A stretch of 64,000 nt of DNA from NCBI GenBank assembly GCA_965113315.1, contig OZ220371.1; one strand, written 5' to 3'. The notes under the pieces were generated by a model. That model was not told the DNA's origin and searched no databases. It worked only from the letters and a program-made list of their open reading frames with translations. This stretch comes from Podarcis vaucheri (Eukaryota). Shown here piece by piece: positions 9,134 through 60,724 of this stretch (position 1 is the stretch's first letter; each line of letters begins with the position of its first letter). The position numbers and the translations under genes are program-made.

Positions 9134-10192
9134 TCATTTCCGTTCAGGAATTAACTGTGACCAACTGAGATCAGTACCCAAGTTGTCATCCTCAAGGCCA
9201 GAAAAACTGACATCTAGTAGGATTTTGCTCAAACTGTCATTCATGGTGTCCAGGACTAGGCCTTCCAAGAATGAATGGTTTTCAGGAAGAGCAGAGGCCT
9301 GAAGCTCTGGTGACGACTGTTTGCTGGTTGCAGGAGAGCTGGTCAAGGGCCCAGAGACCATGTCATTGGTTTCTGCATTTAGGAGTGGCAGCTGTGGAGC
9401 ATCACATAACGATGGCCTTAAGGGAGTGCTGCCAAGTCCCAGGATGTCCAAGTTCCCCTGAAGGGATATTAATGAGGTTGGAGGGGTTCTCACAGGACTG
9501 CAAAGCAGACCACTAGTTTCCTTGACAAAAGGTGCCAATCTCCAGGGGTCAGTAGTTGCCAGGAATGGTGCTGGCGTGGTTATGGGGGCTTTACTAGGTA
9601 CGGAAGAAATGGGCAGCTTGCAGAACATCTCTTTTATTGCAGATTTAAAAGGAATGACTTCTCCCTGAGAAGATGTACTTTCCAGAGGATGCGTATCCGT
9701 TGCAAAGGGAGGGTCATTTCCCACCGTGCATGACTCTGACCTACTGGTGGGTTGCAGGAGGAGGACTGGTTCTTCAGAGGAAGGCAGGGCTAAGTGCTGT
9801 TTCCTTCTGGATCTGCCCATTACTTGCCTCTCTTGTCTCTTTATAACCAGTGTGTCCAACTTGCTCCGGGATGGTGACTTGAGAGCTGTAAATGGTCTCT
9901 TCTGCTTTGCAGGTGGGGCTGGAAGGACTATGTCTGGTGGTTCACCCAGTTGCTCTGGCTCTGCCTTTGTAGACGCTGTGGGGAGGAACTGAGGGGCCCA
10001 TGTGTTGGAATGAAAGTTGTCACTCTCCTCTTTTATATGCAGGGCTGGGGCGAATGATTCTTTGCTGATCCAACAGGCGTCCTGCTTTATGGACTGCTGG
10101 GATGTAAATGGAGATAGCTCTCCGTCACAAGTCTCCTCCTTGATGGGGATGGGAGCTGGGAGCAGGGTTGCCTCTTCACTGGACAGCAACAC
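9134..10192 (-). CDS. FOXM1: FOXM1 last coding exon (transactivation domain)
   Basis: Acceptor tattgcag|GTG. Contains RSRRKQHL and EGLVLDTMNDSLSKILLDVSFSGL...SWSQLIPE; TGA at 9134. Confidence 0.95.
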   Translation of the reverse strand: MLLSSEEATLLPAPIPIKEETCDGELSPFTSQQSIKQDACWISKESFAPALHIKEESDNFHSNTWAPQFLPTASTKAEPEQLGEPPDIVLPAPPAKQKRPFTALKSPSRSKLDTLVIKRQERQVMGRSRRKQHLALPSSEEPVLLLQPTSRSESCTVGNDPPFATDTHPLESTSSQGEVIPFKSAIKEMFCKLPISSVPSKAPITTPAPFLATTDPWRLAPFVKETSGLLCSPVRTPPTSLISLQGNLDILGLGSTPLRPSLCDAPQLPLLNAETNDMVSGPLTSSPATSKQSSPELQASALPENHSFLEGLVLDTMNDSLSKILLDVSFSGLEDDNLGTDLSWSQLIPERK

Positions 10193-11735: not shown

Positions 11736-11905
11736 CTTTGGAGCAATGCACACGGGTTTGCTGCTCTGCATGGTCTCTGAGACACCCTGGGATGCAGGAA
11801 GAGGCATCTTTGAAGAAGGTTGAAGGATGACGGACTGACTCAAAGGAAAGTGAATTGGAACTAGGTAGGAGTTGACACGTGGCAGCAAGGGCTTCATTTT
11901 TCGGC
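11736..11905 (-). CDS. FOXM1: FOXM1 coding exon 7
   Basis: RKMKPLLPRVNSYLVPIHFP...IAPK; AG/GT boundaries, phases consistent. Confidence 0.93.
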
Positions 11906-13348: not shown

Positions 13349-13427
13349 GTGCAGTCTGTGGCTCACTTTTACGACCGCTAGTGCCTCCCATACTCTTCTG
13401 TAGATCTGGAATGTGCCGTTTTTGCTG
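13349..13427 (-). CDS. FOXM1: FOXM1 coding exon 6
   Basis: tag|CAGCAA (NAGNAG acceptor) QQKRHIPDLQKSMGG...TA-R, donor C|gtgagt. Confidence 0.85.
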
Positions 13428-14374
13428 CTACATTAGTTTTAGATTAAGAGAGACAAGAAAACAAAAGTTAGAGAAGCTGCAATTTCCCAGCTGCTTTGTA
13501 TGGATCCGGAGGGCAGTGCTGAACTAATATAAGGAATTTAACTGCCACAGAGCTATGGGGCAATATGTGTCACCTCCTGCTGCAAGCAGACACCCTTGTA
13601 TTTGCTGACTGTCACCCCACAAACCCCACAGAGCCTGACAGAGGTGGCACAACAGAACTCCTTCCACAGCTGTCCTTCAGGCAGGAAGGGGGGTGGAGAG
13701 AGAAAAGAGCTGAGTTTGATAACTCTCACTGCCTGAAGAAATAAAGATAAAAAGATTAATTGTGCAGTGTGTTTCGTTCTACCCAAGTTCAACATGCTTG
13801 AGCACAATGGCAGAAGAAAAGGAGCAGCAGCAAGCAGAGACAGCGCCAGTTGATACACGGAGTCAGTCATACTAGCTATTTGCAAGATTATGGAAAAGAG
13901 CTTTTAGTTTCAGTCCTATCAGCATTGTTGGCTGCTGTCAGGATGCAAGCGATGATGCCATGAGCCTGCCCTCCACTCACCCCCCCATTGTGCTCTCTCT
14001 CACCGTGTTCTAGAAAGATATATTAAGAGGCTTCATTTGCTCCTTTAAACCAAGCATTACAACAGAAATAATCTAAAAATGCACTTGCAGGTGTGCTTTT
14101 TAAAATGTACTGAAAACCCACCATTTGACCAAATATTTCCTTGTGCCCCAAATTAATAGGCGGTGAATAAACTTAAGTATCCACTCATCGGTCCGAGTAG
14201 CATGACTGTAGGTAGCCAAGGCGGCCCCTGCATTTTCCACACGCTTGAAGGAGGCACAAAAGGGGAAGCTGCAGGGGGATCTCAGCTCTGACTAGTAAAG
14301 CAACCTCTATACATCTGCAGGCACCGAAAGAGGGAAGAAAGAAACCCAAGCCCAACCAGGAGGGAAGGTCTTAC

Positions 14375-14419
14375 TGATTCCAAGAGCCCGGGTGATGCTG
14401 GTGACTGCACATCCAGTGG
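14375..14419 (-). CDS. FOXM1: FOXM1 45-nt exon (equivalent of alternative exon Va/A1)
   Basis: cag|CCACTGGAT...TTGGAATCA|gtaag encodes PLDVQSPASPGLLES, homologous to human PLDPGSPQLPEHLES. Confidence 0.85.
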
Positions 14420-16110: not shown

Positions 16111-16464
16111 TAGCTCCACATCCTGTGGCCCTCTGGATACTCCTGGACTACAATTCCCATCATCCCTAACCGTTGGCCATGGGAGTTGAAGTCCAGCAAC
16201 ATTTGGAGGGCCACATGTTCCCCACACTTATCCAGACAATGAGATAGCATTCCTTAACCCTTTTAAAAGGTTTATAGCCACACCAGTACTTAAGACTTTC
16301 CTTTCTGTGAATTCAAGTGATCCATTTCCCTTCTAATACCAAACCTAGGTGATCCAATGCTCACCAGCATGTCTTCACCTGCCTCCTCAGAATGGAAATA
16401 GCCAGGTGCTTGAGAAATCAGGAATTGGTAGGGCAATCTCCTTTTCTGCATGAAAGGTACTTAC

Positions 16465-16593
16465 TTTGAAAACTCGGTCCAGTGTCAAATAGCGGTTGGC
16501 TTCAGGGTGAATGGTCCAGAATGAGATTTTGCCATTGGCAGATGTCTCTCGAACGAACATGTCATGAAGAGAAAGATTGTGCCTTACACAGCT
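16465..16593 (-). CDS. FOXM1: FOXM1 coding exon 4 (second half of forkhead domain)
   Basis: catccag|AGC TGT GTA AGG CAC...TTC AAA|gtaagt, 129 nt, encoding SCVRHNLSLHDMFVRETSANGKISFWTIHPEANRYLTLDRVFK. Confidence 0.95.
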
Positions 16594-18225
16594 CTGGATG
16601 GGAAAGGAGAAAAGCTTGCTGTTTTTTTGTTATCAGTGGATTCTTCAGATGAAATCTTGATAATTCACAAAGACCTTGGCTTTGAATCCTCTGTATCTAC
16701 AGGGGCTGTGCCCCTGCCACATTCCCCACTTTAACCCCCTAGGGCTTCCTCTTCCCGCCCCATGCAACTGCTGAGATCACTTTTCACCTTTCCAACCCAA
16801 TTTTCAAGCCACTTCTCTTCTGTAGCCCTACTTTGCACCCATTTTCACCTTTACCCCCATGTCCATGACTCCTCCTCCTCCTCCTTTTGTGCAAGCTCCT
16901 TTGCACACAAACCAGCCCCATGGCAACCTGATGCATCTTGCTCCTCCCACACATTGTACTACTAAGCACCCTTTTTGCCTTCTGCTCAATTTTGAAGTGA
17001 CCACCCCAATATTCTTCAGACCATTTCATGCCCCTGCTTTCATCTTCACTCCCATTCCTCCCTCTTTGCTCTCATATTTTCATCTCCACTCCCCTTTTCC
17101 GTTCACCCTCCTTACTTTTCTCAACTCTCCCTTGCACCGACCACCCCGCATTTCCATGCCTTATCCTCTCCCCTCTGGCACAGCCCCATCTGCCCACACT
17201 CCCCAATGCTGATATCTGTTACTGTACCTTTAAGACGAATGGCTTCTTAAGAGCAAGCCTTTGAGTTGGCTTGTTCAGTGGGAGAAGATTAAATTCAGTT
17301 GGTGAATGTTGTGTTTATATGGAACTTTGCTTGTTAATAAAATATCCCGTCTAAATTACTGTATTGAATCTGGAACTGGTACCAGGAGTGAAATACATTA
17401 TGTGAAGGTACTGTGACATATTTGAGGGCTCTGCATCTTTGATCTCTCTTGCACAAGGCAGTTGAGCAACAGGGCAAAGTTTAAAAGAGCCCTCGTTCAG
17501 TGCTTCTCCCTCCTTGCTTTATTCAGACAAGAAGTCTGAGTAAAGTTGAGAACTATTCCATTTAAGGTAACATCTGGTGATACGGGGGTTCTGTTTGTGG
17601 TGATTATTAAGTGGCGACTTCTTTCTATATGCAAACAGATGCTTGGTTTTGGAGTCAGGAACTGATGAGCATGCATGTCTGAACCAGGAGATTTTGCTTC
17701 CCAATTTAAGTAAGCTGTTTTGTGGTTCATTTCATATTCTGAATTCACTTCCATGGCCCCAAGGCCAGTTAATACTTATAGTCATCACTTCACGGCTGCA
17801 GTACAAATGGATGTTTTCCATATAAATGTGAACAATCCATCAGAAGTCAAGCAGCACATATAATATGCTGCAGTAAAGTCGCTTCACACAAACCACTGGA
17901 CCCACAAATGCTAAATGATCAAGTGATGCACACTGATGTGTGCCTTTCTTACATGCAATTGCTTCCACAATAATTTAGAACAGCGTAACACAGATGGCAG
18001 GTATATACACTCTCTCCCCCAGGAATTTGTGGGCAAGGCATTGTAAATATACAGTATGGCAAGAGACCATAAATGAGTGAATAGAACCTCACATGCATAC
18101 TAAAAACACCAGGCTCATCAAGATTGTTAATTTCTGCAATAATGCAATTCCACAAAGGGTTCACATCAATGCCTGTTCATATCAAACTGCTTTTCATCCT
18201 CGTTTCATTAGCTATGTGCATATGA

Positions 18226-18938: not shown

Positions 18939-19238
18939 TACTTCTCCAAACCTTGGGGTGCCCCCAAGCCTGCTACAGACTGAACATAAGAAACAGGGGG
19001 AATCCTATTCAAAACAAGAAAAACAGAATTCTGCAAAAGCAGATGAATTATGTTAATGTGCTTAATTTCTATGGTTAATGTAAGTTGCAGGGTTCTGCTT
19101 TTCTTGGAACAGCATTTTAATTTTTTTCCTGCAGAATACACATAGCCCTGGTAACATTTGCACCTGAAGGGAGAAAACTGACAGTTGTTTGCGTAATGCA
19201 CTTTCTCCCCTGGCTTTTCAGGTCACGGTGTTTGCTAC

Positions 19239-19439
19239 CTTCCAGCCGGGCTTCGCTGCATGCTTGAAATAAGGGAAATGGTCCTCAATCCAGGTGTAGA
19301 TATCTTTCAGCATCATGCGCTTCTTCTCAGTGCTGTTGATGGCAAACTGGATCATGACCATATAGGAGTAGGGGGGACGTTCAGAGAAGGACTCCTGCCA
19401 TGAGGTCGTAGAGGAAGGCGCTGCAGAACCTTCCTTGGC
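19239..19439 (-). CDS. FOXM1: FOXM1 coding exon 3 (first half of forkhead domain)
   Basis: SWQESFSERPPYSYMVMIQFAINSTEKKRMMLKDIYTWIEDHFPYFKHAAKPGWK; boundaries tcag| and |gtag. Confidence 0.95.
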
Positions 19440-21285
19440 CTGACAAGAAGACAAGAAGACAAGAAGAAGGGTGCGGGGCCTGTAGAATGTTAGTTATATG
19501 AAGAGCTTCTGGATTTTGATGTACCAAACAGTGAACCTCTGAATAGGTTAGGGTTAGCCATTTTAATGGGCAAATATTTAAAGTCCACGGGGCTGCTTCC
19601 CTGCTTGCCAACCCCCACTCGTGAAGCCCCCCCCCCCCCCCGCTCCTCAGAGAAAGGAAACCTTTTTGGCTCCATGAGTGAGATCTTTACTTTGATTGGC
19701 CCTCTTGGCCAAATCTGACAGGTGGGTGGGGCTAAAACAATGGGAGTGGGCAGGGGATACAAACCCTGCTTGAATCAGGAGCGGGCTTGGATGGAATCCT
19801 AGCAAACTGAGCAGGATTAAACCTCCATTCATCTTGAATGCTGATGACATTGAAATGAATTGCAGGGGCTCTAGCAACAAGGTAAAATGTAAGATTGGAT
19901 TAATAATAGATAAACTAATAGGACACGAATTTGCTGAATTAATTATTAAAAGGGATACAAGAACGGGAGACGTGAGGAAGTCAGGAAAATAAGTTAACTA
20001 AAGATGAAATTAAGAAAGAGGGAATTTTTGTTTTGTTTTTTCTATATGTGTTTTTCTTTTTCCGTGTTTAAAGTGTGTATTTTTGTATTATGTAACTTTG
20101 TATTTTCTCTGTCTTTGTATTTTTCTGAACTTTTTTATTGTTAAAACTTAATAAAATATTGATTAAAAAAAATAAAAAATAAACCTCCATTCATCAAAGG
20201 ATAAGCAGGGGTGAAATCCTGCTCAGTCTGACTGTGAACCCATGTTCTTCCTGTGCATCTCACCCAGACAGCACTTCTGCCTCAGGAGCAGGGAGGTGCA
20301 GAGTGGTGGCAGAACAGGACGGCTTTAGGGAAGCTGCCCCAGCCTGCTCTAATACTTCTTCTGCCTGCATCTCCCTAGTCCTCTTCTCTTCTCAAGGTCC
20401 ATTAGCAAAGCATTTCACAGAAGTCTGTTGCAATACTGTAATTCACAGGCCTACCTGTGGCCGCCAGCCAAACTGCAGCATGGCAACGGTCTTACCTTCT
20501 TATGCTATGTACGGTTAATTTAGCAGAAACATATCATTGAGGCTTACATTAGGAAAACCCAGGTTTCCTTAGTGTGTTTGTGAAACTACATAGTCTGTGT
20601 GCTGCAGTGAACAGAATGTGGGGCATGAGTCAGGTTTAAATTCCTCCCAAGCAACAAAGCTGCTCACCGCATGACCCTGCACCAGCTGTTCTCTCCCTGG
20701 TGAACGTCAAGGTGGGATTGCGATGCAATAATTGCAATCCATTATTATTTATAGCATTATGCAAATATGAATTAAAGCAACCCATACGCTGGGAAGAAGT
20801 AGCCTGCCGTTGCTATCAGGTGAAAGAAAGGTGCACTTAAGAATGAAGGTTCCCATCTAAGCAAGGACATTTCATGGAACATTTGGCACCATAAATATAA
20901 ATATCTGCAGTGTTCAGCCAGTTTGCAGTGAGCCTCCTTGCCCATACAGGGTTGCAGTTACCAATCCAGAGATCTCCTCTGCACTTTAAATTGTGAAGTG
21001 CCTGAAGATAAAAAGTCGACAGCAGCTTATCCCACGCTAGAAGCACTGCTGGTCCTTCTGTCTACCTCCTTCCCTCCCTCCCCTTAAGTCCTGCTCACTA
21101 CAATGGGTAGAAGGGGGCAGGCAGACCAACACTGGGACATCAGCAGATGAGAGGGGTCTCTGCAGCCTGGTCTCAAGAGAGCGCAGGTACAAGAGGAGTC
21201 TCTGAATTGCAGCCTGGCCCTATGCACAGACAGCTGGCCCGGCTTCTCTTTCCTTGGCTGTTATTTGGCTGCACACCTTGCTTAC

Positions 21286-21419
21286 CTTAACAGCTTTCTG
21301 CTTGGGGGTCTGGTTCTCCTTCTCTGTCTCCTTTTTCACACTGCAAGGTTTCAGTCCACTATAGCCCATATTGCCCAGCCACAGAATGTTAGTCAGACTG
21401 TTGTCTGCCTCCGCACTGC
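21286..21419 (-). CDS. FOXM1: FOXM1 coding exon 2
   Basis: DNSLTNILWLGNM...KKETEKENQTPK (KEN box); ctag| and |gtaag, phase 1 to phase 0. Confidence 0.9.
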
Positions 21420-22473: not shown

Positions 22474-22817
22474 AAAAGGTAGAGGGACCCCTGACCATTA
22501 GGTCCAGTCGTGGCCGACTCTGGGGTTGCGGCGCTCATCTCACTTTACTGGCCGAGGGAGCCAGCATACAGTCATGTGGCCAGAATGACTAAGCTGCTTC
22601 TGACGAACCGGAGCAGCGCACGGAAACGCCATTTACCTTCCCGCTGGAGCGGTACCTATTTATCTACTTGCACTTTGATGTGCTTTCAAACTGCTAGGTG
22701 GGCAGGAGCAGGGACCCAGCAACAGGAGCTCACCCCGTCACGGGGATTCGAACTGCCAACCTTCTGATCAGCAAGTCCTAGGCTCTGTGGTTTAGCCCAC
22801 AGCGCCACCCGCGTCCC
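22474..22817 (-). mobile_element. Sauria SINE
   Basis: Reverse copy of the SINE at 3705; TSD tcattttcatatta on both sides. Confidence 0.85.
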
Positions 22818-23472
22818 TCATTTTCATATTACTCGCACATAGAGACACTTCTACTTTAATTGCCAATTACAGGGTAAATTGAATGGGGCTATATATCTCT
22901 GGCCTCATGCTCTGCACACTTGCCACTCTCAAGTGGCAACTTTAGAGATGGGAGACTATGAGGAGTGCACTTTGCACACAAAAAGAGCACTTTGTACAGA
23001 ATAGCAATCTGTTGTGAGGACAGGCTAACGCCTCTCTGCTTAGAACAGGTTCCCTGCTTCAAGACTCCAGGGCACAAGCACCCAACAGCACCCTCCACTC
23101 CACCAACCAGGGGCGCCAGGACAGAGCACTGCACACAGGTAAACAAGGGAACATATAATACCTGGTACACTTTCCACCACCACCCTCTTTGCCATTTTGG
23201 AATACTGTATTTTGCACCAACTCCTCTCTCCTAAAAGCAGTGCTTTTGGGGTTAAAAAAGAGATGCTAGTACTCGCATCTTGATATATGCATTGTTGGTG
23301 CCAGCACAAAAGAGGTGATGGTACTCCATACTGGTGAGTAGACCCAAAATGCACTGCCTAAAAGCCACCCTTCCCCCCCCCCCGAATAGGCCCTGTCCCT
23401 CCCCCCATCAACTAGCAGCAGTCAAGCAAAGAGAGGGCTGCCCCATGTGTCATAAGAAAAAGAACTACATAC

Positions 23473-23863
23473 TGTTTTCTTCCGGTTCTCGTCCATCCAT
23501 AGACAGCAACTCTTCCATTAATGCAGAGCTTTGCCCAATGTGCTTTTCATCCTCTCCTGCCTTGTCGTGGGCAGTGCTGTGCTCCTCATCAGATTTGAAA
23601 AGATTCTTGAACTCTCTTCTCTCCACCTGGGCATCTGACAAGGTCGGGTGGTCTATTATCTTAATCCCCCCCACAGGCACTTCTCGATTTCCGGGTTCCG
23701 TTTTGTTTGTACCGTGCTCCTTAGGATTTGCTTCTTCCTGCTTAGGAGACCCAACATTCTGGCCACTTGGCTCATCTCCTGCTAAGGTGCTCGCAGCATC
23801 GCTATGTGGGAAAGACAGCTTCCGTCTCTTGAGAATCAGGGGCCTGTGAGGGCTGCTCTTCAT
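23473..23863 (-). CDS. FOXM1: FOXM1 first coding exon (N-terminal domain, shortened)
   Basis: ATG at 23863: MKSSPHRPLILKRRKL...GGIKIIDHPTLSDAQV. Donor A|gtatgt at 23472; exon acceptor at about 23910. Confidence 0.93.
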
Positions 23864-25055
23864 CCTTGACCTGTGCAGTCAATCTCCATTGAGGACAGAA
23901 TGAAGGAACCTGAAAAACACAAAGAACAACATTTCTGTCCAGTTATGAGAACATGTGACAAATTGCGAGGGAGTGTCTTGAAATCAGCTGCTAGGTTTCC
24001 TGCAATATGCTTTTTAAATAAATGAATGGTGTTCTACAGTAGGAATCTTCAACCTTTTCAAACCTTGGGTCCACATTTAACCCAAACATGTTTTTGAGGA
24101 TCCATTTCTTGATATTGTGCCCCACCTTGAACCAGTGGGTCTCGCCCCGCTACTCTACCTCAGGATCAAATAGTAAATGCAGTAAACACAGTAAATGCAG
24201 ATATGCAAAATAAGAGCTGATTAATGATACATATGCAACATCAAAGTTTCAGAAACAGTACATCTCTGAATATCATTCGATGGGGAGCAGCACAAAGGCT
24301 ACTGCCTCCCAGGCCCTGTTGGTGGCTTCCTAAAAGCATATGGTTTGCCACTGTTGTTATGCATGGACTGGGTTGCCTATGGTATGATAGCTAGATCAGG
24401 CAAGGAAAGTTTTCTAAACTGCAGTTTAGAACTGGATTCCCCTCTCCCTTTGGGAACATTAATGTGCTAGAAATGACCAGCCCAGATATGAACAGTCAGG
24501 CAGCTACTAACTTTTCATTTGGACCAGTAACTTTTGTGGTTTGTGTGCAAGACTTAGCAAAATTAAGGAAATAAAGAAATTAAAGCTCAGAATAAGACTA
24601 ATTTCCTTATTGTTGGAGGGAATGTGCTATCAGGCTTTCTCATTACCATAAAAAATATGCTGCTAACTATAAAAGTTTAGATGGGATGTGAGCAAATAAA
24701 CTGCAGCTGAATTCAGAAAAGATGGAGGTAAAGTTAGTGGGTAATTCAAAGGACTGGGCAGGTGGCATTCTGTTCTGGATGGAGTGGCACTCAAAGCTTG
24801 AAGGTGCTGTTTGATCTGGCATGAATTGCTTTCCACCCTGTTGGACAAGTACATCAAGTGCAATTCCTCCTGGACAGCCTAGAGGGCCCCATCTGCCTGC
24901 CCTCCTGAGGTCCCAGACCTAAAGAAAAGCAAGCGGCAAAGAGCAGGAGATGGGCCTTGGAAGCGCTGGTTCAATTACACCCAAGTGCCTGACACTTTTG
25001 TCTTTAAGCACTAAGATTTTAATCCTATTGCCAATGTGTTTTTACTGCTCTACTA

Positions 25056-30699: not shown

Positions 30700-31340
30700 G
30701 TAGCACCACCACCACCAGCTGCGCCTTTCTGGGGCTCCTGGCCCCGGGGCGAGTTCGCGCAGGACTAGCGCCTTAACTGAAAGCGCCGTTGAGACGCCGA
30801 GCTTACGTCACCTTCGGCAGCGCCGCCTCGCTCGCTCGCTCGCTCCCGGCCGGGAATCTCCTCCTCGGGCTTCGCCGCTCGGCTCCGGGGCGGGAGAGGG
30901 ACCCCGTTCCTGGCTCCGGGGCGCCTGCCGGGGCGCGCGTCTTTGGCAAGCGCCGCCTGCCTCTTCGCCCCTCGCCCGGCTCCGCCGCCGCCGCCTTTTC
31001 CTTCGTCCGTCCCGGTTGTTTGAATTTGGCGCCCGGAGAGCTCGGTCCGCGTCACGTGACGCGCCGGGACCAATCGGCATCGGGGCAGAAGAAGAGCGGA
31101 GAACGTCAGGGTGCCTAGAGCGGGGGCGGGGCTTCGGCGGGCTGTGGGCGGAGACAAGGCCGCGCTCCGGAGCGGGGGCTTCGGCGGGATCCCTCCGAGA
31201 TCGCGGTGCGTCTGGCGGCGCTGCCCCCAAGCGGGGGGGCGGCCCTCGGGGAGGGGGCCGCGGCAGGACCCTCTAAGGAGGCTGCGGGCCACATGCTCAG
31301 CCGAAACAAGGAAAGGGGCCGGGAGAGATCAGGGGGTTTG
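30700..31340. promoter_or_regulatory. CpG-island bidirectional promoter of FOXM1 and RHNO1
   Basis: Very GC/CpG-rich and lies between the divergent genes. CHR TTTGAA (31019-31024) abuts an E2F-type TTTGGCGC (31025-31032); palindromic E-box GTCACGTGAC (31051-31060); CCAAT (31070-31074); GC boxes at about 31122-31150. Confidence 0.85.
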
Positions 31341-31347
31341 GGCTGGG

Positions 31348-32438
31348 TGGCCATCAATATACGCAGTGGCGTAGCGGGGGGGGTGCAGGGGGGGCGGGCT
31401 GCACCGGGCGCAACATCTGGGGGTTAGGATTAGGGGGCGCAAATCCACGGGTTAGGGGGCGCAAATTACTTGCCTTGCCCCGGGTGCTGACAACCCACGC
31501 TACGCCACTGAATATACGGATGGTACCCAGCTCTACCTCTCTTTCAAATCAGAACCAGTGAAGGTGGTGAAGGTCCTATGTGAGTGCCTGGAGGCAGTTG
31601 GAGGATGGATGGTGGCAACCAGATTGAGGTTGAATCCTGACAAGACAGAAGTTCTGTTCTTGGGGGACAGGGGGCGGGCTGGTGTGGAGGACTCCCTGGT
31701 CCTGAATGGGGTAACTGCCCCTGAAGGACCAGGTGCGCAGCCTGGGAGTCATTTTGGACTCACAGCTGTCCATGGAGGCGCAGGTCAATTCTGTATCCAG
31801 GGCAGCTGTTTACCAGCTCCATCTGGTACGCAGGCTGAGACCCTATCTGACCACGGACTGTCTTGCCAGAGTGGTGCATGCTCTGGTTATCTCCCGCTTG
31901 GACTACTGCAGTGCGCTCTGTGTGGGGCTACCTTTGAAGGTGACACGGAAACTGCAATTAATCCAGAATGCAGCAGCTAGACTGGTGACTGGGAGCGGGC
32001 GCCGAGACCATATAACACTGGTCTTGAAAGACTTAAATTGGCTCCCAGTACGTTTCCGAGCACAATTTAAGGTGTTGGTGCTGACCTTTAAAGCCCTAAA
32101 CGGCCTTGGTCCTGTATACCTGAAGGAGTGTCTCCACCCCCATCATTCTGCCCGTACACTGAGGTCCAGTGCCGAGGGCCTTCTGGCGGTTCCCTCATTG
32201 CGAAAAGCAAAGCTACAGGGAACCAGGCAGAGAGCTTTCTTGGTGGTGGTGCCCACCCTGTGGAATGCCCTCCCATCAGATGTCAAAGAGAAAAATAACT
32301 ACCAGACTTTTAGAAGACATCTGAAGGCAGCCCTGTTTAGGGAAGCTTTTAATGTTTAATAGGTTATTGTATTTTAGTGTTTTGTTGGAAGCCGCTGACT
32401 GGGGGGACTCAGCCAGATGGGTGGGGTATAAATAATAA

Positions 32439-33069: not shown

Positions 33070-34151
33070 GTATGGTCTTCTTGTCTTTTCCTTTATATTG
33101 TGGGGATGTACTGTTAATGCACAACTGCAGCGCTTGCTTGGTGTCCTCACTGTTTTCTGTGCTCTATGTTCAAAAGCTCACTATCCTGCCCTTGCCTTGC
33201 AAAATAAGACCACAAGTTATTCTTCTTCTTTTTTTTAAAGCTTGCCTGCCCATATTTCCTTGGAAAACCCAGCTCTTGTTAATTATTCTTATCTCTCTTT
33301 ACCTGTACAACTATCGCTTTAGATTATTTTGGCCTACAAAATAGTTTAAAACTGTTCATACCCCCAAATTCTCTTTCAGTCCTGGAGACAGTTATTTCAG
33401 TGGAATTCTGTTTTTTTATGGTGCTGTGGGACACTGATTTTGTAACTGTCTTTCTGGAAATTGCCAACAGAAGACAAGGAAGAGCTCAGCTTGCAGCTAT
33501 GAAACCATTACGGTGCTTATTTTGCTCATAATTCTGGCAGTTTGGTGCCTTACTTCTCTTCATGAGAGGGAAATAATAAATAAAATAATAAGGTAACAAT
33601 TGCATGCACATTTACTTGGATGTAACCTCTTGAACCCAGTGAGTCGTACTTTTGAGAAAATACGCATAGGATAACTGTAAATCACATGCATGAGATTTGG
33701 TTTTGTTTTTTAAAATCTGGATATTTAGAAAATGAATATAAATACAATATAATGTTTGCACAACCCTTTCTAGCAATTTCCAAAGAGGGTTTGGCTATCA
33801 ATGAGAAAATGGTATCGGTCATCGGAGCTGATAAGCCAATCCCTACCTCTGCCCACTTATTAATGGCTCCACTCTTGTACTTCCATCTTGTGACTGAGTA
33901 ATTCTTAGTCTTCTTACATGGGCCCTGGGGGTAGAAGGTTTCGAAACCCTTGATTTAGAATATGCATAGCAAAGGGTTAAATGAAGCATTTATCCATCAT
34001 CTGCTAATTTCTTACACTGCCTTCAACTGTAATATGGGGATAATACAGACTTCTGTTGCAGAACTATTGCAAAGATTACTAAGAGTGTACATTAAGGTAT
34101 TTGAAATAGGGATGCTTGTGTTAGCTTATTATTATTGCTTATTTTTCTCAG

Positions 34152-34823
34152 ATAATTCCACAGTTTGAGAGTGCCAGATCACTGGGTCTCCAGAGGTGGT
34201 GCCACGGTTCCCCAAACGTGAAAATAAAGGATACCAACCATGCCATCCCTGTGGTGGCAGGAAGGCGTTGGAGGCCTGCAGCCTACAAGTTTTCTCCACT
34301 AATGTTTGAGAATGCAAAAACAGAATCCTGTGCTGTGGGGACTTCACAACACCCTTTGGACTTTGGTGGACAAGCAGGAAACTTTGAGACATGCTGTAAC
34401 CAGCCAAGGGCTCTTTCTACTCCAGCTTCCGTCAGCCCTACAAGCAATTCTAGGGCTGGGATGGAAAATCTTTGTCCCTGCCCCTTATCTCCTTATGCTG
34501 ACCCAGTTGCATTCAGCCCCCCAGAGAGATGCACTCCAGAACAGCCCTCCGTTGAGGCCCATAATTATTGTCTGCCCCAAATGGATAGCTTTACTCCTGG
34601 CCCATTTAGTAATCAAGTTGGTGAGGATATTTCTAATGACTTTGAGGCTACATCTGTGCTGGTCAAGGACACTCCTGAGGACGAATATGGAGTTAAGGTA
34701 ACATGGCGGAGTCGATCTCTCTTAATGAAATACCTCAGAGAAAAAGGAATGCTGAGCACCAGGGACGTCTTAGTGAAGACACAAATGAGTCCAGTGCTTA
34801 GTGGGGCTGAAGATAGCCAATAG
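34152..34823 (+). CDS. RHNO1: RHNO1 second coding exon
   Basis: ttctcag|ATAATTCCACAGTTT completes W-IIPQF. Also KFSPLMFE and VLVKDTPEDEYGVKVTWR...YLREKGML. TAG at 34823; about 278 aa in total. Confidence 0.9.
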   Translation: MIPQFESARSLGLQRWCHGSPNVKIKDTNHAIPVVAGRRWRPAAYKFSPLMFENAKTESCAVGTSQHPLDFGGQAGNFETCCNQPRALSTPASVSPTSNSRAGMENLCPCPLSPYADPVAFSPPERCTPEQPSVEAHNYCLPQMDSFTPGPFSNQVGEDISNDFEATSVLVKDTPEDEYGVKVTWRSRSLLMKYLREKGMLSTRDVLVKTQMSPVLSGAEDSQ

Positions 34824-42540: not shown

Positions 42541-43118
42541 AACAAAGCACACAGGCACTGCAGCTGCCGACCAGCCGCGGCCTCTGCTCTACAAGTAGGA
42601 ATTCCCACTGAGAAAAGGGGAAAGTCAGAACCAGCCATGAAAACCATTCTTGGTCCATTGAAACTAGTACCGGTATTTTGTGTTTCAGTCTAGGCTCTTG
42701 TACTACCAACCCAGCTGTACGCTTGTGAAACATGGACCACTTATAAACGCCATCTCCAACTCCTTGAAATATTCCATCAATTGTGGGAAAATGATTGCTT
42801 GTACATGAGAGCATGAGCAAAGTTCTTATTGTTGCAGGGTGATTTCATAGCTAGAAGCATCTTTGGAGCATGAACAGCGCGTGAACAGCTCGTGCTGTCC
42901 TATATGATTGGCTAACGTAGCATGGCCTGATGCTCGAACGGTCTAGTGCGAAGGTCCTTATCTGCTGGCTGAGAACAAATTGCTTGCTTGTATTTTGTAT
43001 CTTTCACACAATAAAAGCTGTGCTGCATTAGCCCTAGGAGCAGCCATATTTCGGAACCTATCATGGTGTGAGACTGATTTTTCTTTGGATGCCGAGCTGC
43101 AACTCGACATTTGGTGCC

Positions 43119-43487
43119 CGTTCTCATTTGACCTTTAAGACCCTTCTCAACAAGCAATTGGGAGGTCGATCGCCTACTGTATCTGAAATACCTAATGCTG
43201 TACATCAAGTATTGTTTATTCTAAATCATCTCTTGTATCCCCACAATAAGGATTTTACACCTGCTGAACTTCATTTCCGGAAGGAAGAAGTATTGCAACG
43301 CCCTTTAGTGTCTTACAGGTTGCTTCCAGATCCACAGTGGAAGGGTCCAACTTCCTTGATTTCCTGGGGTTGCGGATTTGCGGCAATTGACGTAGACGGA
43401 GTTCCCCGATGGGTTCCAGCCCGCTGCGTTCGACCTTGGCGCTCTTCTGTTGCCTCGTCTTCACCCAAGGAGACACCAGCACCTTGA
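43119..43487 (+). pseudogene. ERV integrase C-terminal remnant
   Basis: RSHLTFKTLLNKQLGG...VLFILNHL...TPAELHF...WKGPTSLISWGCGFA...PRWVPARCVRP, a betaretrovirus-type IN tail. Confidence 0.8.
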
Positions 43488-44049
43488 AACCGTATTTTAC
43501 GCTGTTTGCCGGTGATGACCTCTCACCTGACCTCAACCCGCATTGCAGTTGGAGACATCGCCATATTGATGTGCCCTGGATGAAGTCACCTTCCACAGCT
43601 GTTCCAGTGTTTCCTGGCACGTTGAAAGGCCATCTTCAACCCTATCGCGTTGGCCCCCCTTCCCCCTGGGAAGCTACCGTTTCTACCACTTATCGTTACA
43701 GTTTTGCCGCCTCTTGTCTGGGAAATGAACCTGGCTTTGAAGGATGCCCTCGTCAGACCGGCATCGCTTGGGTTTTGCCCCCTAATAGCAACCATCCCAT
43801 CTGTGTCATCACGTTTCGTTGGGCTTGGACTTTTGACTCAGCAGTACAAGGAGCAATACATCAGACCTATTTACAGCAAATGGGCTCCTGTATCTGCAGA
43901 AATGGCTGTGTGGTTTCTTCTGGATTGTGGTTTTTACATGCCAATAATCGAGCCACGAAATATCACGCAGGTTGCTCAGAAACAGCCATTGGACTAATTT
44001 ACCATTCTCATCCTTATTGGCATCACTTGGATTTTACCCCCCAGATATT

Positions 44050-44390
44050 TTTTTTTTCTCCTCCCTCAGGAGTCCTGCCTTATGATGTGTTCCCCTGAGC
44101 ATGTACAGAGGGCTGTCTTGGAACTATTGTGGACTCTTGGCAAGGGAGGGGGTGAGGGATTTTAGTGTGTTCCAGTTGTTTCATTCTTGTGCTTTGGCAT
44201 GGTTCCCGGACAGAAAGTTGCAATATGGTTCTTTAGCAAGGCCTGTGGAGACAATGGGCTCTGTTTTCGACCTTGTTGCAATCTTTCAGTTACAGCAAGC
44301 GGAATATGCTTGGCTAGTGCCTTTTAGCTGCTGAGAAAAATGATTTTAAAAAGCTTCTCAAAGCTTTGAACCTTTTTTTGGGTGGTGGTA
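44050..44390 (-). mobile_element. Partial foreign LTR fragment inside env
   Basis: Aligns by eye with 53880-54210 of the LTR inserted in the Gypsy gag. T-run at the left junction; no TG/CA ends. Confidence 0.7.
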
Positions 44391-45258
44391 TTCTAGCATT
44401 CCTATAAATGCTTCATATAAGATTAGCAATAATATGAAGGACAATCGCATAAGTTTACCTCCTGTATTTCTATTGCTTGTAGAATTAGCTCCTTATTGTT
44501 TTCATTTTAATCACAATAGCAAAAAATTTTTAGGTCATTATCCATATTGTAATTGGACATATGAATACATTAATGGATCTTCTTGTTTTCTTAATGTTAC
44601 AACCATGAGTGGCAGACCAAAGGTTTTAGTTAATAATGTCACAACTTACATGACCTATGAACAACAAGCTGCGTGTAGAGACTTTTATGTTTGGTTCGAC
44701 TGGATGAGAAAGAGCAGCAGAACTACATGTTTGCTTCAATCTGATTTATGGTTATTTTGTGGCACACATGCCTACAAAGAAATCCCCTCTGCCTTTTTTG
44801 GTACCTGCACGTTAGGTATAGTGGTACCCTTGGTGTATAAAATAGATAAGCTCCCAACGGTCCGTTTGCGTAACAGAAGGGAAGTACAATCACCTATTTC
44901 TCAATCTCTAGGTCCCTTCTGCCTTCTTTAGGTGCAGCCATGAATTACCGTGATCTGCATAAATTGGCAAACTGGACAGAAAATTTGTTCAATTCCACCA
45001 TCTTGGCTTTAAAAATGATTAACAAAGAAATGTCAGAAATAAGAGAAGTTGTTTTATAAACTTTTTATGCTTTAAATGTAATCTTTGCATCTAAAGGTGA
45101 AATTTGTGCCTTAATTCATTCTCATTGCTGTATGTATATAACTGATCAATCGACCAATATCTCTGCTACTATTGATTATATGGAACAAATGATAGCCCAT
45201 AATCCTTTGAATCCACCTGAAGGTTTTGATCCATGGGATTGCTTATTTTCTTGGTTGC

Positions 45259-50860: not shown

Positions 50861-52660
50861 CATATGAAAGTTGGAATATATTAAATTCAAAACATGCAAA
50901 TCAATAAACCAGGTTGCATATTCATCACTCTGTGACTGCATGTGTAAACCAGCCCTTATACTTCTCTGAAAGGTTTCTATGTGATGTGAACACAATCTGT
51001 GTGCTATCTTTATTCCTTTACACTAGAACAGATGTTCCTCCTCTTGCTACAACAGGATTAACTCAGGGTTAAAGAACTTGAGGTCTACAAGGAAAACTGA
51101 GCAATCCTCAAGTGACCACGTGCTTTTAATTTAGTGTTTACCCAGTTTTGCATAGTTGGATATTAATCTTTAGCCACAATGTTTGTGGACTACCCTATAA
51201 CAGAATATGCACTTCAGCTGGGCTGCTCCGTGCAAGGAGCAAGGGAGCAGGAAAGTGGGTGGGGGAGAGAATATTGAGGGGCCTGTTCCCCCAGAATAAA
51301 ATTATTGGAGGGGCCCAAGGGACCCCGGCCCCGTTGGTTCCTATGGATATGACTCGCCCTTTTAATGGCTGGAATGGAGCTGGCTGCACATTCAGAGCTG
51401 TCTATACACACATGCACGTCTCCATCTAGCCAAGCAAGACACATTAACAGAATCCAAGGACATGTTGCAGACAGGAATGGGAACGCCAATAGGCAGGGCC
51501 AGTGAGGGGTCTGGCCTGGGGAGAGTTGGGAGGCATCATTTGGCCCCCGAACCTCAGGTTCCCAATCCTTGTTTTGGGCCGTCTCAGGCTGTTATTGTAT
51601 TTATAAAGGAGAAAGATATTGCTTGCCTCATTTCAAAGGGGCTTCATGTAGCAAGTGGAATTAGCCCAAGGAGCGCGAATGACCTTCTCTTTTGATTCCC
51701 AGTAGCAGTTTCCATCTTGGGATTACCTGTGTCTTTTAATCAAACTAGTAGTGAAAGGGGAACTTATAGGTGTACGAGGAACACATGCCTATATGTGATA
51801 TTGATGCATCTCTCTCTTAGTGTGCACAGCTGGACAGATTAAAAAGACTCCCTTCTTCTGTCCTAAATGCACCCAAAAGGGGGCAAACAGATGGTGCAGG
51901 TTTACTTCACAAATGCAGAATCTGAACCCTGCAAGGGGAAACAGATGTACTGTATGTATTGGTGGCTGGGGAAAGCTGAAAATTGTGGGGGAGGTAGAAG
52001 AATTAGAGAGGAAAATAAGACTAAGAAAGTAAAGAGCAACAATGTTTGGAATGCCATAAAAGTTTGTGTCTGAAATAAAATACACTCTTCTTTATTAATT
52101 GAGAATCTGACTGAAACTGAAATGATTTTACCAGGGAGGACCTGGTTGGTGGCAGCGGATTAGAGGTGTATGGGTCAATAGTCCGTGAGACGACTGGGGG
52201 CTCTGTATGAATGCCACAAAATTGGCGGCAGGGCAGGATTCGATAAGTCTAAGAGCCTGTGAGGGGAAGCAATACACCTGGAGAGGGGAAGGGTAAATCG
52301 GTGAAGTGATTACCTGGCCCGAGAGTGTGGTTGAGGATAAACCCCAGATTGCCGCGAGGCTGAGATAACAATAAGAGCAAGAGATCTCAAAAGACTGCTT
52401 AGGCTCAGGGTCAGAGGAAGTAAGCTTGAAAGGTTAGAGGCAAAAACCTAAAGCTATACTTTGGGGACCAGGGTCTTGAAAAGCCAAGCCGGGAGGAACA
52501 GTGCTGAGAGTAAAAGTCTCTTATTTAATTAATTAGTGAAAATACTGACTCACCCATAATGCCACCCAAGAAGACCAAGCACCCAGTGAGAGAAAACCCA
52601 TACGAAAGCTCTGGGGAATAGAATGGGAATCCCCAGGGGGAGGAAACGAGAAGAGAAGAG

Positions 52661-53653
52661 ATGACTAAAACCCCACCTGAAGTAGAAGTTCCACAGTTCT
52701 CAGAGGATTTTGAAAAGTGGAAATTAGTACAAGAATATAACTTGGAATTAGAGCTTGAGAAAAATACGCTTGGAAAAGAAAAAATTAGGCTTGAGGAAGA
52801 ATTGGAAAAAGAAAAATTGAGGGCTGAGCAAGAATTGGAAAAAGAAAAAGTGAGGGTAGAGCAGGAAAGGGAACAGCAGCGGTTTCAGTTAGAGATGAGA
52901 CAGTTGGAATTAACGGTTTTAGAAAATCCTAATACTAGTAATAACACCGATGGACAGAATCAAATAAAGATAGATTTAAAACGCTTCCCTGAGTTTAGAG
53001 ATAAGGATACCCCAGAACCATTTCTGGTATCCTTCAAAAGAGCCTGTCACGATTTTCAAGTGAGAGATGAAAATAAAATGATGATCTTGAGAGCTAGAAT
53101 AAGTGGTCCTCTAGCCGAAATATACACTCAAATGACTGAGGAACAATCCCGAAAATTTGAGGTGTACAAGCTGTTAATATACACACACTTTGGGATTACC
53201 TCAGAGCAGTTGAGGGAAAAAATTTAGAAGTGTGACAAAGGTGAGGGAGGAAACCTATGTGCAGCTGGGTGCAAAGATAAAAACCTACCTCAGGAGATGG
53301 TTAGAGCAAGAGAATGCAGACACGGTACCTAAGATTAGAGAAGTGATAGCGTTGGAGCAATTTTACAACACAATAAATGGCCAATTGAAGTACCTGATAA
53401 AGGAAAGGAACCCCAAGACAATAGAGGAAGCAGCTGGTTTAGCCGATAAAATAAATGAAATCAGAGACCACGGATTTGATGAGCCAAAAATTGGTGGGAG
53501 ATCTTGGGAAACAAACAAGAATAAATTTCAGCAAACCAAAGGAAAGATTACCTCAGAAACCGATGAGAGAAGTTGCCCCTCGTCAAAAAGCCCACATGAG
53601 AAGGCAGACACCCATACAGAGTTTACTGAGGGAAAAGCCAATAAAACAAGTTA
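52661..53653 (+). pseudogene. Gypsy gag with coiled coil and SCAN-like capsid domain (frameshifted)
   Basis: ELEKEK repeats; ETYVQLGAKIKTYLRRWL...EVIALEQFYNTI...LKYLIKERNPKTIEEAAGLAD. Confidence 0.75.
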
Positions 53654-54252
53654 TGTTGTAGCCTTATGAGGCTTTGCCCTCGGGTGGGAAAAATATTGCG
53701 CCTGGGAAAGGGAAGTGGGAGTCAACAGACACTCAAGGAATAGTTTCGGAGAAAAGGCTTTTTATTTCTACCATCCATGAACTGGTAGAAGGAGCAAGTG
53801 TGATAAGTCACAAAAAGCATGCACGAAGTTCACAGTCCTGTGCACAAGCATATATAGCCCTTTCCAGTTCCCTCCTCCTTTCTCCTCCCTCAGGAGTCCT
53901 GCCCCATGTTGAGGTTCCTGAGCATGTACAGAAAGCTGTCTTGGGACTATTGTGGACTCTTGGCAGGAAAGGGGGTGAGGGGGTTTTCAGAGTGTTCCCG
54001 TTGTTTCATTCTTGTGCTTTGGCATGGTTCCCGGAGAGAAAGCAAGTTGCAACGTGGTTCTGAGAAAGGCCTGAGAAGACAATGGGCTCCGTTCTCTACC
54101 TTGTTGCAATCTTTTTAGTTACAGCAAGTGGAATGTTTCTGATGCTTAGCTGCTGAGAAAATGATTTTGAGAAGCTTTGAGAAGCTTTGAGCTTGCTTTG
54201 GTGGGGGGTGACTTCGGGCCTAGGTGAGATCACTTGTCCTCACTTTCCTTCA
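53654..54252 (-). mobile_element. Solo LTR inserted at the gag zinc-knuckle region
   Basis: TG...CA ends; minus-strand TATA (about 53850) and AATAAA (about 53761). TSD not clear. Confidence 0.6.
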
Positions 54253-54891
54253 TTGCAGGACCCAAAGACATTTCATGCTGGAGATGTGGGAAATTAGGTC
54301 ATAAAAGTTTTGATTGAAAACCTGGAAAAGAAACGTCTAGTTACAGCACCACACAGAAGCAGACATATTGTATGCAGCCTGTGGAGCAGGGCCCAACTAG
54401 TCAGGTTGTCAAGGAAACGGCCATGCCCACTAGGCCCGAGCCTGCTGAGGTAGTAGAAGCCAAAGTCCTGCACTGTTATGCGATTCAACAAGATAATCTC
54501 TTGTTAAAGAAGGCTGGAGAGTATATCTGGATAGACGGAAAAAGATATTTCGGGTTAAAGGACACGGGATCACAAGTCACTATGGTCCACCCTGAGATAA
54601 TCAGGGATAATTCCAGGGAAATTAATGAAATTAAAAGGAATTTCGAAACAAGCAGAGATCCTAAAGGTGGCGGAAATAGATGTCAGGTTCAAAAACTGGG
54701 CAGGGAAGTGGCAGGTAGCCCTTTCGGAAGAAATTCCCGCCCCTGTGCCCATTGGTTGGGAGATTTTAGAACATGTGCAGAGTGCTTTCATAGTTAGCAG
54801 AGCAAAAGGGAGCCCACAGTCACCTAATCCTGAGGGGGTGGATACAGTAGCAGAGGCAGACAATGCTGAAGGACAGCAAGGGGATGATCAG

Positions 54892-55594
54892 TGTGAGGAA
54901 AGAAAAAACGCCTTTTTGTTTCCTTTGACTTGTTGTAAATAAAAATATGCCCTTTTCCCTTATGGGGTATCCAAGAGCCCATATAGAGTCCTTACATAGG
55001 TTCCCTATTGGTAGGAGAAAATAACAGAGGCCAACCAGAGAATATTGAGAAGCAAAGCAGCTAGTAAGCTTGATCTTTATTGATCTGTTGCAACAGGGTG
55101 CTCCCCTCACACGCAGGAGAGGAAGAGGACCCAGAACAATGGCCTGCAAGGCCTTATAAAGACTTTTGAAATTCCCCTTCTCTAGATCAGGACCACCCCC
55201 AGAAACATTATGCATACATCACAGAAGGGGTGTAACCTAAGACCACCCCTCAGATACATCCCACCTACATCACAGAAATTTAAATGTTGTTTTTCTCTTG
55301 TCCTTGTTTATCTCCTGTCTAGCAGGTTACTTGATTGGATTTTCTGGGGAGCCTGGCCATTCTTTTGTAATGCTAAAATACTTATTTCCTGGGCCAGGTC
55401 ACAGGCTCACACCTTATTCAAACACAGATTAAAGGAAGAGACAATGGGGAGGCTTTTCCATTTTTAACCTTGCAGAGAAAGGATTTGGTCAGTTTAGGAA
55501 TCAAAATAGTTCCAGGTTGGTTTTCCTGTGCTGATCTATGTATGTGCAGTTATGAACATTACTATATATCTAAGACTATAAAATTCCTATCACA
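54892..55594 (-). mobile_element. LTR-like insert between protease and integrase
   Basis: TGTGA...TCACA termini; minus-strand TATA and AATAAA. No clean TSD. Confidence 0.45.
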
Positions 55595-57000
55595 GACTAA
55601 AAGTCAAACCCCAAGTTTTGCCAAAAAGCAAAAAGAAGACACTGAGTTACAAATGTACTTTGAGGCAGCCGAGTCGGAGAGGGCGTTAGCTCCTGAGTGC
55701 CCAGAACGGTTTGGTTTGAGCAGGGACCTTTTCTATCGAGAAGTCCTTGCCCCAACATGTAGGGGGGGGGGTGAAGAAGTGAGAAGACAGTTAGTAATCC
55801 CACATGAATACCGAGGCAAAATCCTGCAGCACGCTCACAACAGTGTATTTGGAGCGCATATGGGTATTACACGTACAAAACAGAGTGGCTCAAAAAGTTT
55901 ATTGGCCAGGAATGGGGAAGCAAATAAAACAATATTGTCAAGCCTGTGACATATGTCAGAGAAGAGGCACCGGTCAAGACAAAACAAAAGCCAGATTGTG
56001 CCCATTGCCTATCATATCAACCCCTTTTCAATGGTTAGGGCTGGACCTGATAGGGCCATTGCCTAGAGCAGGGGTCTGCAACCTTTTAAGACAAAAAGAG
56101 CCACTTGGACCCGTTTCCGAAGAAAAAAAAACGGGGAGCTGCAAAACTCGTCCTTATAAAAATAACTTTTTTTGTCACTTTTTTATTATTTCTTTGTTTG
56201 ACCCCTCAGAATTACTCCTCCTCATAGAAATAAACGTTAAATTAACAAGTTGCCTTTTTTTGTGTGTGTGTTCTTCACTCCCCTTCAAAATAGTGACCAG
56301 CGTACATGCCCCCTTTCAATGCAGTGACCAGCGTACATGCCCCTTACAATGTAGCGGGCGGGCGGGCGGGAAGGTGACATTGGGACGGTGCGTGACTAAT
56401 GCACGCACCACCCCCATGCGACGTCACAGCCAGTACAGCGCCCACCACAGTGGGGAGTGTCGGGGCGCACAATGCGCCTCCTCCCCTCGCTAGTATCCGC
56501 CCCGGAGCCGCAGCAAAGGTGTAAAAGAGCCACATGCGGCTCCGGAGCCGTGGGTTGCAGACCCCTGGCCTAGAGCCAGCAGGATACATCCCCACCATAG
56601 TGGATTACGCAACCAAATATCCAGCAGCCATTCCATTACAAATCATTGAAATAGAAACGGTGGCAACCGCTTTAATTAACTATATGAGTAGATTGGGCTT
56701 TGCCAGTGAAATAGTCACTGGCTTGGGTTCTTCTTTCACATGAAGACTAATGAAAAGACTATGGGAGGGGTGTGGTATTAAGCATTTAACATCAACACCT
56801 TATCACCCTGAAACTAATGGATTAGTTGAAAGATTCAATGGAACCCTAATGAGAATGATTAAAGCCTATACCGCAGAAAATCCCAATGATTGGGATGACA
56901 CGATACAACCACTACTTTATGCCTATAGGGATGTACCCCAAGAAAGTACCGGGTTTAGCCCATTTGAATTATTGCTGAGATGTAAAGTAAAAGGGCCCCT
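55595..57000 (+). pseudogene. Gypsy integrase remnant
   Basis: HAHNSVFGAHMG...CQACDICQ (H2C2), LDLIGPLP, IVDYATKYP, YHPETNGLVERFNGTL; frameshifts and stops. Confidence 0.85.
56069..56567. mobile_element. hAT non-autonomous element inserted in integrase
   Basis: 15-bp TIR caggggtctgcaacc/ggttgcagacccctg; 8-bp TSD GCCTAGAG. Confidence 0.9.
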
Positions 57001-59895: not shown

Positions 59896-60650
59896 TTATT
59901 ATTTATACCCCGCCCATCTGGCTGGGCTTCCCCAGCCACTCTGGGCGGCTTCCAAAATAATATTAAAATACTGTGATACATCAAACATTAAAAGCTTCTG
60001 TAAACAGGGCTGCCTTCAGATGTCTTCTAAAAGTCTGGTACTTGTTGTTCTCTTTGACATCTGGTGGGAGGGCGTTCCACAGGAAGGGCGCCACTACTGA
60101 GAAGGCCCTCTGCCTGGTTCCCTGTAACTTGGCTTCTCGCAGTGAGGTAACTGCCAGAAGGCCCTCGGTGCTGGACCTCAGTGTCCGGGTAGAACGATGG
60201 GGGTGGAGACGCTATTTCAGGTATACTGGACCGAGGCCGTTTAGGGCTTTCAAGGTCAGCACCAACACTTTGAATTGTGCTCGGAAACGTACTGGGAGCC
60301 AATGTAGGTCTTTCAAGACCGGTGTTATGTGGTCTCGGCGGCCGCTCCCAGTCACCAGTCTAGCTGCCGCATTCTGGATTAGTTGCAGTTTCTGGGTCTC
60401 CTTCAAAGGTAGCCCCACATAGAGCGCATTGCAGTAGTCCAAGCGGGAGATAACCAGAGCATGCACCACTCTGGCAAGACAGTCCATGGTCAGATAGGGT
60501 CTCAGCCTGCGTACCAGATGGAGCTGGTAAACAGCTGCCCTGGACACAGATTTAACCTGTGTCTCCATGGACAGCTGTGAGTCCAAAATGACTCCCAGGC
60601 TGCGCACCTGGTCCTTCAGGGGCACAGTTACCCCATTCAGGACCAGGGAA
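59856..60650 (-). mobile_element. L2 LINE 3' fragment
   Basis: Peptide almost identical to the L2 at 31.5-32.4 kb; (TAA)n tail at 59856-59895. Confidence 0.85.
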
Positions 60651-60724
60651 TCATCCTTGAAATAATCCTTCTTGTTTCAAGGTTGCATTTTTATATTGTT
60701 GGAACCTCCCCTCGGACTGCGTGG

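Follow-up and report, generated by a model that had tools for sequence, protein, structure and literature searches.

A Podarcis FOXM1 gene that lacks the core of its autoinhibitory region and has an altered forkhead domain

We analyzed a window of 64,000 nucleotides from Podarcis vaucheri (contig OZ220371.1). Its FOXM1 gene has lost the autoinhibitory (NRD) core and has a serine in place of a base-reading asparagine in its forkhead domain. Judged by its sequence, the gene departs from canonical autoinhibited FOXM1 in two of the features that define it. Probably, though far from surely, it is a retained gene that encodes a de-repressed and weak-binding FOXM1, with the loss of DNA binding offsetting the lost brake. 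This reading rests on a deletion that related organisms share, on substitutions that cluster, and on the open frame and intact TAD. (Statements from published papers refer to the excerpts of those papers that were available.)

The FOXM1 frame is open for 735 codons in eight coding exons. All seven coding introns are GT-AG, and there is no stop, frameshift, or broken splice site, which argues against a unitary pseudogene. The parts of the gene are:

30800-31080, minus strand: likely non-coding exon 1 and promoter common to RHNO1, judged by motifs
23473-23909, minus strand: exon 2, the first coding exon (a spliced contig of the relative X15 spans 23472-23911)
21286-21419, minus strand: exon 3, with the KEN motif kept at 21321-21313
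19239-19439, minus strand: exon 4, first half of the forkhead domain, with A249V and V282A (and E223K and S229P ahead of the domain)
16465-16593, minus strand: exon 5, second half of the forkhead domain, with Q328R
14375-14419, minus strand: exon 6 (45 nt)
13349-13427, minus strand: exon 7
11736-11905, minus strand: exon 8
9134-10192, minus strand: last exon with the stop, and a 4-codon deletion near 9670 (seen in the assembly letters only)

The 30800-31080 region is CpG-rich and has CCAAT, CACGTG, GGCGCCAA beside TTCAAA, and a GTAAG donor near 30810. We take GGCGCCAA and TTCAAA to be E2F-like and CHR-like motifs. This region is common with RHNO1, and its motifs prove no FOXM1 expression. A very high-copy SINE-like repeat (by contig depth) lies at 22475-22818, in FOXM1 intron 2.

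Exons 4 and 5 encode a forkhead domain of the FOXM1 type (PF00250) and are 93% and 89% identical to FOXM1 from Podarcis muralis (P0003). The gene is head to head with the RHINO-family gene RHNO1 (34125-34820, plus strand) and upstream of a DUF4532 gene, so that these two genes flank it. We regard it as the FOXM1 ortholog by descent. It might instead be a degenerating duplicate, with an intact FOXM1 elsewhere that is absent from the assembly: a pattern of this kind is typical of a freed duplicate, and contigs can demonstrate presence, not absence. But genome G000 has one match each for exon 2 and the last exon, and one match at 100% for exon 4 (the next best is 52% identical). Also, the gene sits between the RHINO and DUF4532 genes, and in four runs, 23558-24027 is covered by one contig per run (85% likeness). 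A duplicate is very unlikely.

The window also contains several repeat-like remnants. At 43038-44928 (plus strand), there is a retrovirus-like remnant with an integrase C-terminal domain (PF00552). The next two frames resemble env on visual inspection and had no match in Pfam. A broken LTR-retrotransposon-like remnant at 52622-56490 (plus strand) has an integrase zinc-binding domain (PF17921). Similar frames at 31715-32356 (plus strand) and 60215-60676 (minus strand) resemble a LINE reverse-transcriptase tail by eye, with only a weak unrelated match in Pfam.

We then examined the deletion in the first coding exon. As the first-pass annotation had stated, GGIKIIDHPTLSDAQV is joined directly to ERREFKNLFKSDEE (minus strand), and 391 nt of the exon are coding (23863-23473, with the ATG at 23863 and the donor after 23473). 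The window contains no N bases. The annotation had put the loss at about 37 codons, from a length of about 502 coding nt for the human exon; alignment to P0003 instead gives a gap of 41 residues (81-121), with flanks nearly identical to named lacertid proteins. The features around the junction are:

23623-23625, minus strand: junction of the 123-nt in-frame deletion (P0003 residues 81-121 absent), with a 3-nt microhomology
23627-23668, minus strand: NRD remnant (strand 1 plus the first part of strand 2)

The deletion most likely arose by microhomology-mediated joining or slippage.

A hidden or skipped exon is ruled out by a profile search for the lost segment in all six frames of the window. 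In agreement with the annotation, which had seen no such exon in the following intron, the search found nothing in introns 1 and 2 (its control gave E = 3e-26). Its best other match in the window (E = 0.009, at 13778) is downstream of the forkhead exons. We also rejected a lost cryptic GT-AG intron: in the register deduced from P0003 and the 3-base overlap, the sole GT-starting option closes with the Met codon that precedes ERRE rather than with AG, and the spliced contig from X15 retains the segment. Searching G000 with the intact segment and its flanks gave no matches, but this shows little, as the window's own flanks were missed too. A short-protein search found only one further lizard-like exon ORF, with the segment intact.

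The deletion is also seen in sequencing runs. We examined contigs from 6 of the 20 listed runs (X1 from organism A, X3 and X5 from B, X6 from C, X7 from D, and X15 from H). In X1, X3, X5, and X6 (three organism labels, two studies), single contigs of about 930-1400 bases, with 2-13 letters that differ from the window, span 23623-23625 with no inserted letters. X3 is so near to the window that it may be its source. X1, X5, and X6, each of which departs from the window at several sites, are separate samples from one study, independent of it. In X7 and X15, from two close relatives that keep the segment, two pieces overlap at 23623-23625 with 120 letters between them, which gives 123 extra bases and a 3-base microhomology. 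(The X15 contig is spliced and has the intact allele; that it derives from RNA is a guess.) The first-pass annotation had raised an assembly collapse near 23620, but contigs from four of the six runs cross the junction without an insertion. An artifact of assembly or annotation, whether a collapse or a hidden exon, is already refuted by three samples with the same junction, since their contigs are distinct from the window at other sites; the 123 additional bases in X7 and X15 and the profile search also speak against it, and we give it almost no credence.

To place the loss, we used 137 FOXM1 proteins of at least 700 residues, out of 141 fetched (P0041, P0044, P0053, and P0057 were dropped). 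The set is confined to reptiles and birds, contains isoforms, and draws largely on the best 120 of 951 matches. None of the 137 lacks 10 or more residues of the NRD core. In the window's FOXM1, the strand-strand-helix-strand motif of the NRD is missing (34 of 34 residues of P0003 81-114). Because P. muralis, P. lilfordi, and P. raffonei all lack the deletion, the loss is recent and limited to a sub-clade. In a protein tree, the window falls among Podarcis, but its exact sister has weak support (0.63). Among carriers, exon 2 (23552-23711) has six variants, of which three are synonymous and the others change the protein (D100N, S91C, and G65R in the window's numbering).

What does the NRD lose? 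In an AlphaFold2 model of the intact P0003, we found strands at 68-71, 79-82, and 112-115 and a helix at 89-102. (Confidence is modest: these elements have pLDDT of about 55-69, and the chain is mostly disordered, with a mean of 39.7.) The elements agree with the NMR topology, in which three strands and a helix of the NRD and the TAD hairpin form one hydrophobic core (PMC6538375). The annotation's claim that the TAD-docking helix and strand are deleted is supported: the helix is gone, and so are strand 3 and the remainder of strand 2. Eight of nine NRD core residues and all five NRD residues named as TAD contacts in PMC6538375 are lost. In that paper's numbering, V76, I78, I84, I87, I88, L91, F106, I107, and L108 are all deleted (V81, I83, V89, I92, I93, L96, F111, I112, and L113 in P0003, offset by +5 according to spacing), and only I64 (I69 in P0003) remains of the mapped residues. 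NRD point mutations abolish TAD binding and increase reporter activity (PMC6538375), truncations in which any element of the motif is missing lose inhibition, and NRD loss makes FOXM1 constitutively active (PMC11662942). We infer that the lizard's NRD remnant cannot repress or hold the TAD.

The TAD itself is kept:

9137-9271, minus strand: TAD, with the hairpin, Plk1-site, and CBP-binding residues kept

Just 1 of the 33 conserved columns of the TAD, including the hairpin and the Plk1 site, is changed (the second-last residue), and the equivalents of V708, L709, M712, S715, and L716 are retained.

The first-pass reading of the NRD loss stands, but it was incomplete: it missed changes in the forkhead domain and two further in-frame deletions, which alter what the loss means. 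Across the 154 sites compared in exons 3-5 (P0003 173-331), 14-15 separate the window from five lacertids. The five lacertids differ from each other at 0-2 sites and from an amphisbaenian at 5-7. Exon 3 has a 15-nt in-frame deletion near 21406-21410 along with S195G, S196Y, and I220V, and its Q189L change falls in a motif that is invariant in 137 of 137 proteins. In the forkhead domain, six changes affect columns that are at least 95% conserved (A249V, V282A, N289S, S290C, I291V, and Q328R). Among the 137 other proteins, 115 have no such change, 14 have one, seven have two, and one has four. Three of the six are adjacent:

16585-16593, minus strand: recognition-helix changes N289S, S290C, and I291V, with R292 and H293 kept

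N289 corresponds to human N283, a base-reading asparagine, and it is asparagine in all 133 relatives with this exon. Of the Asn, Arg, and His of the recognition helix, the window thus keeps only the last two. X3 has the same recognition-helix and forkhead changes (16400-16897 has one difference, which is intronic; 19001-19641 has none; and exon 3 is ungapped). X6 has two other letters over 16400-17133 and so shares at least two of the four exon-5 changes.

As a control, we considered 52 forkhead loci from G000. The residue at this position is Asn in 45, Asp in 4, Ser in 1, and uninformative in 2; that the sole other Ser is in a broken-looking fragment counts against our best reading. (This fragment, at G000:C31:66149700-66150000, has an upstream stop and is pseudogene-like.) The four Asp-bearing exons lie within about 60 kb (93.93-93.99 Mb on C27 of G000), and we presume that they are FOXH1-like; a broken-looking fragment on C29 is similar to them. 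Two of the three helix-3 changes perfect a 4-base inverted repeat (TGTG...CACA) at 16576-16589 (minus strand). One might speculate that a single template switch produced both. Separately, FOXM1 from Paroedura picta (P0040) has Pro instead of the conserved Leu in the NRD helix and four forkhead changes at conserved columns, the most after the window. This is possibly a second lineage with an altered FOXM1, or else an annotation error.

How would the helix-3 changes affect DNA binding? They might redirect FOXM1 to other DNA sites rather than weaken it, given that three adjacent residues changed while R292 and H293 were retained, and that the presumed FOXH1-like loci with Asp show the position to be changeable in forkhead genes. 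But there are changes outside helix 3 too, and N283A merely lowered affinity (PMC4492089). We consider a new specificity improbable. Human N283 is one of three base-reading residues and makes two base hydrogen bonds (PMC2910063). N283A raises the Kd to above 5 uM (versus 1.1) and reduces binding and reporter activity, and a DNA-binding mutant of FOXM1 retains binding to LIN9, LIN54, and B-MYB (PMC4492089).

We then asked if the gene is under selection or is decaying. The deletions (41, 5, and 4 codons) are all in frame, which has a rough chance of about 0.002-0.04. (As a baseline, multiples of three are 2 of the 16 non-coding indel rows listed, repeats included.) Over the whole gene, 25 private substitutions are seen, versus a rough neutral expectation of 25.6 (from 1.6% per lineage, the intron-rich divergence of two X7 pieces). 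So the overall count fits neutrality, but its distribution along the gene is uneven. Conserved columns are changed at 8 of 106 in residues 122-331 versus 2 of 150 elsewhere (p = 0.018), and relative-rate counts are 13:0, 14:0, and 13:1 in 173-331 versus 13:17 and 16:17 elsewhere. Exons 3-5 have 13 substitutions versus 5.5 expected if neutral (P = 0.005), or 9 versus 5.5 if adjacent changes are counted once (P = 0.11). A caveat is that the regions for these tests were picked after inspecting the data. The rest of the gene also evolves faster in the window than in P. lilfordi when exons 3-5 are set aside (14:3, p = 0.013). Because the count matches the neutral expectation, the rate outside exons 3-5 is also raised, and the excess within them is not robust, positive selection is not established. 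GC-biased conversion does not seem to be the driver: changes between the window and X7 go in both directions about equally (29 from A/T and 27 towards A/T), although this is a weak test.

The main rival to a retained gene is gene-wide decay, in which this lineage can largely do without FOXM1 and the gene drifts, its frame still open through luck or weak selection. Besides the neutral-like count, 10 of the 25 changes strike columns that are invariant in eight outgroups (versus 4 of 63 in other lacertids), and half of the six exon-2 variants among carriers are non-synonymous. Also, zebrafish foxm1 mutants are viable as adults, but the males are infertile (PMC10108034). The three in-frame deletions, the lack of stops, and the canonical splice sites throughout do not fit decay, and conserved columns outside 122-331 are barely changed (2 of 150, though with P = 0.11 against neutrality). 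We think decay is a real but lesser prospect, doubtful on this evidence.

If the gene is retained, as we favor, the 123-base deletion would remove the autoinhibitory core. As the remnant could not hold the TAD, CBP/p300 would have access to the TAD with no need of the Cdk-Plk1 release step. N289S would reduce DNA affinity, and the de-repressed FOXM1 would get to G2/M promoters mainly with the aid of MuvB/B-Myb, while its promoter and its degradation would govern when it acts. Alternatively, the order may have been the reverse: binding may have weakened first, with loss of the brake compensating. Tethering may fail to rescue weak DNA binding, because helix-3 residues are required even at non-consensus sites and helix 3 matters at most sites (PMC4492089, where the change assayed is Asn to Ala, versus Asn to Ser here). 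More tentatively, an oncogene-like deletion that made FOXM1 constitutively active may have become fixed first, after which selection may have blunted the forkhead domain and so converted a sequence-specific factor to a tethered co-activator. If so, a wild lizard clade would run its mitotic gene expression without the Cdk/Plk1-gated brake or normal DNA recognition.

The lizard's gene resembles other vertebrate FOXM1 (NRD-TAD, PDB:6OSW; DNA-binding domain, PDB:3G73) in its exon order, forkhead domain, TAD residues, and neighbors, and its last exon is 93% identical to that of P. muralis. Unlike them, it lacks the NRD helix and strands 2-3, has Ser at the N283 equivalent, and has five more forkhead substitutions and two more in-frame deletions. 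The NRD-TAD interface is likewise lost, with the TAD intact, in engineered NRD-less FOXM1 (229-748) and in NRD point mutants, and these are constitutively or more active (PMC11662942, PMC6538375). In contrast to those forms, the lizard's allele is natural, germline, and common to several organisms; its internal deletion retains residues 1-80 and the KEN motif; and its DNA-binding domain is altered. Among the engineered helix-3 mutants (N283A, R286A, and H287A; PMC4492089), N283A changes the same Asn, but the lizard has Ser, not Ala, with two neighbors changed and the NRD lost as well. Tumor forms of FOXM1 can also lack the NRD, but in human cancer these arise by proteolysis or are isoforms that are probably not translated (PMC8235333), whereas the lizard has a genomic allele of a wild species. 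In a search of article listings from mainly open-access literature, we found no published report of an altered FOXM1 in Podarcis, lacertids, lizards, or squamates.

FOXM1 knockout is embryonic lethal in mouse (PMC11662942). If the lizard's gene is decaying instead, this would be a rare case of an amniote losing a core mitotic regulator. Otherwise, a lineage without the NRD core and the base-reading Asn is a natural test of whether an animal needs the NRD-TAD switch, and of whether FOXM1 must read DNA directly or can be tethered by MuvB, and close relatives with intact FOXM1 are a ready control.
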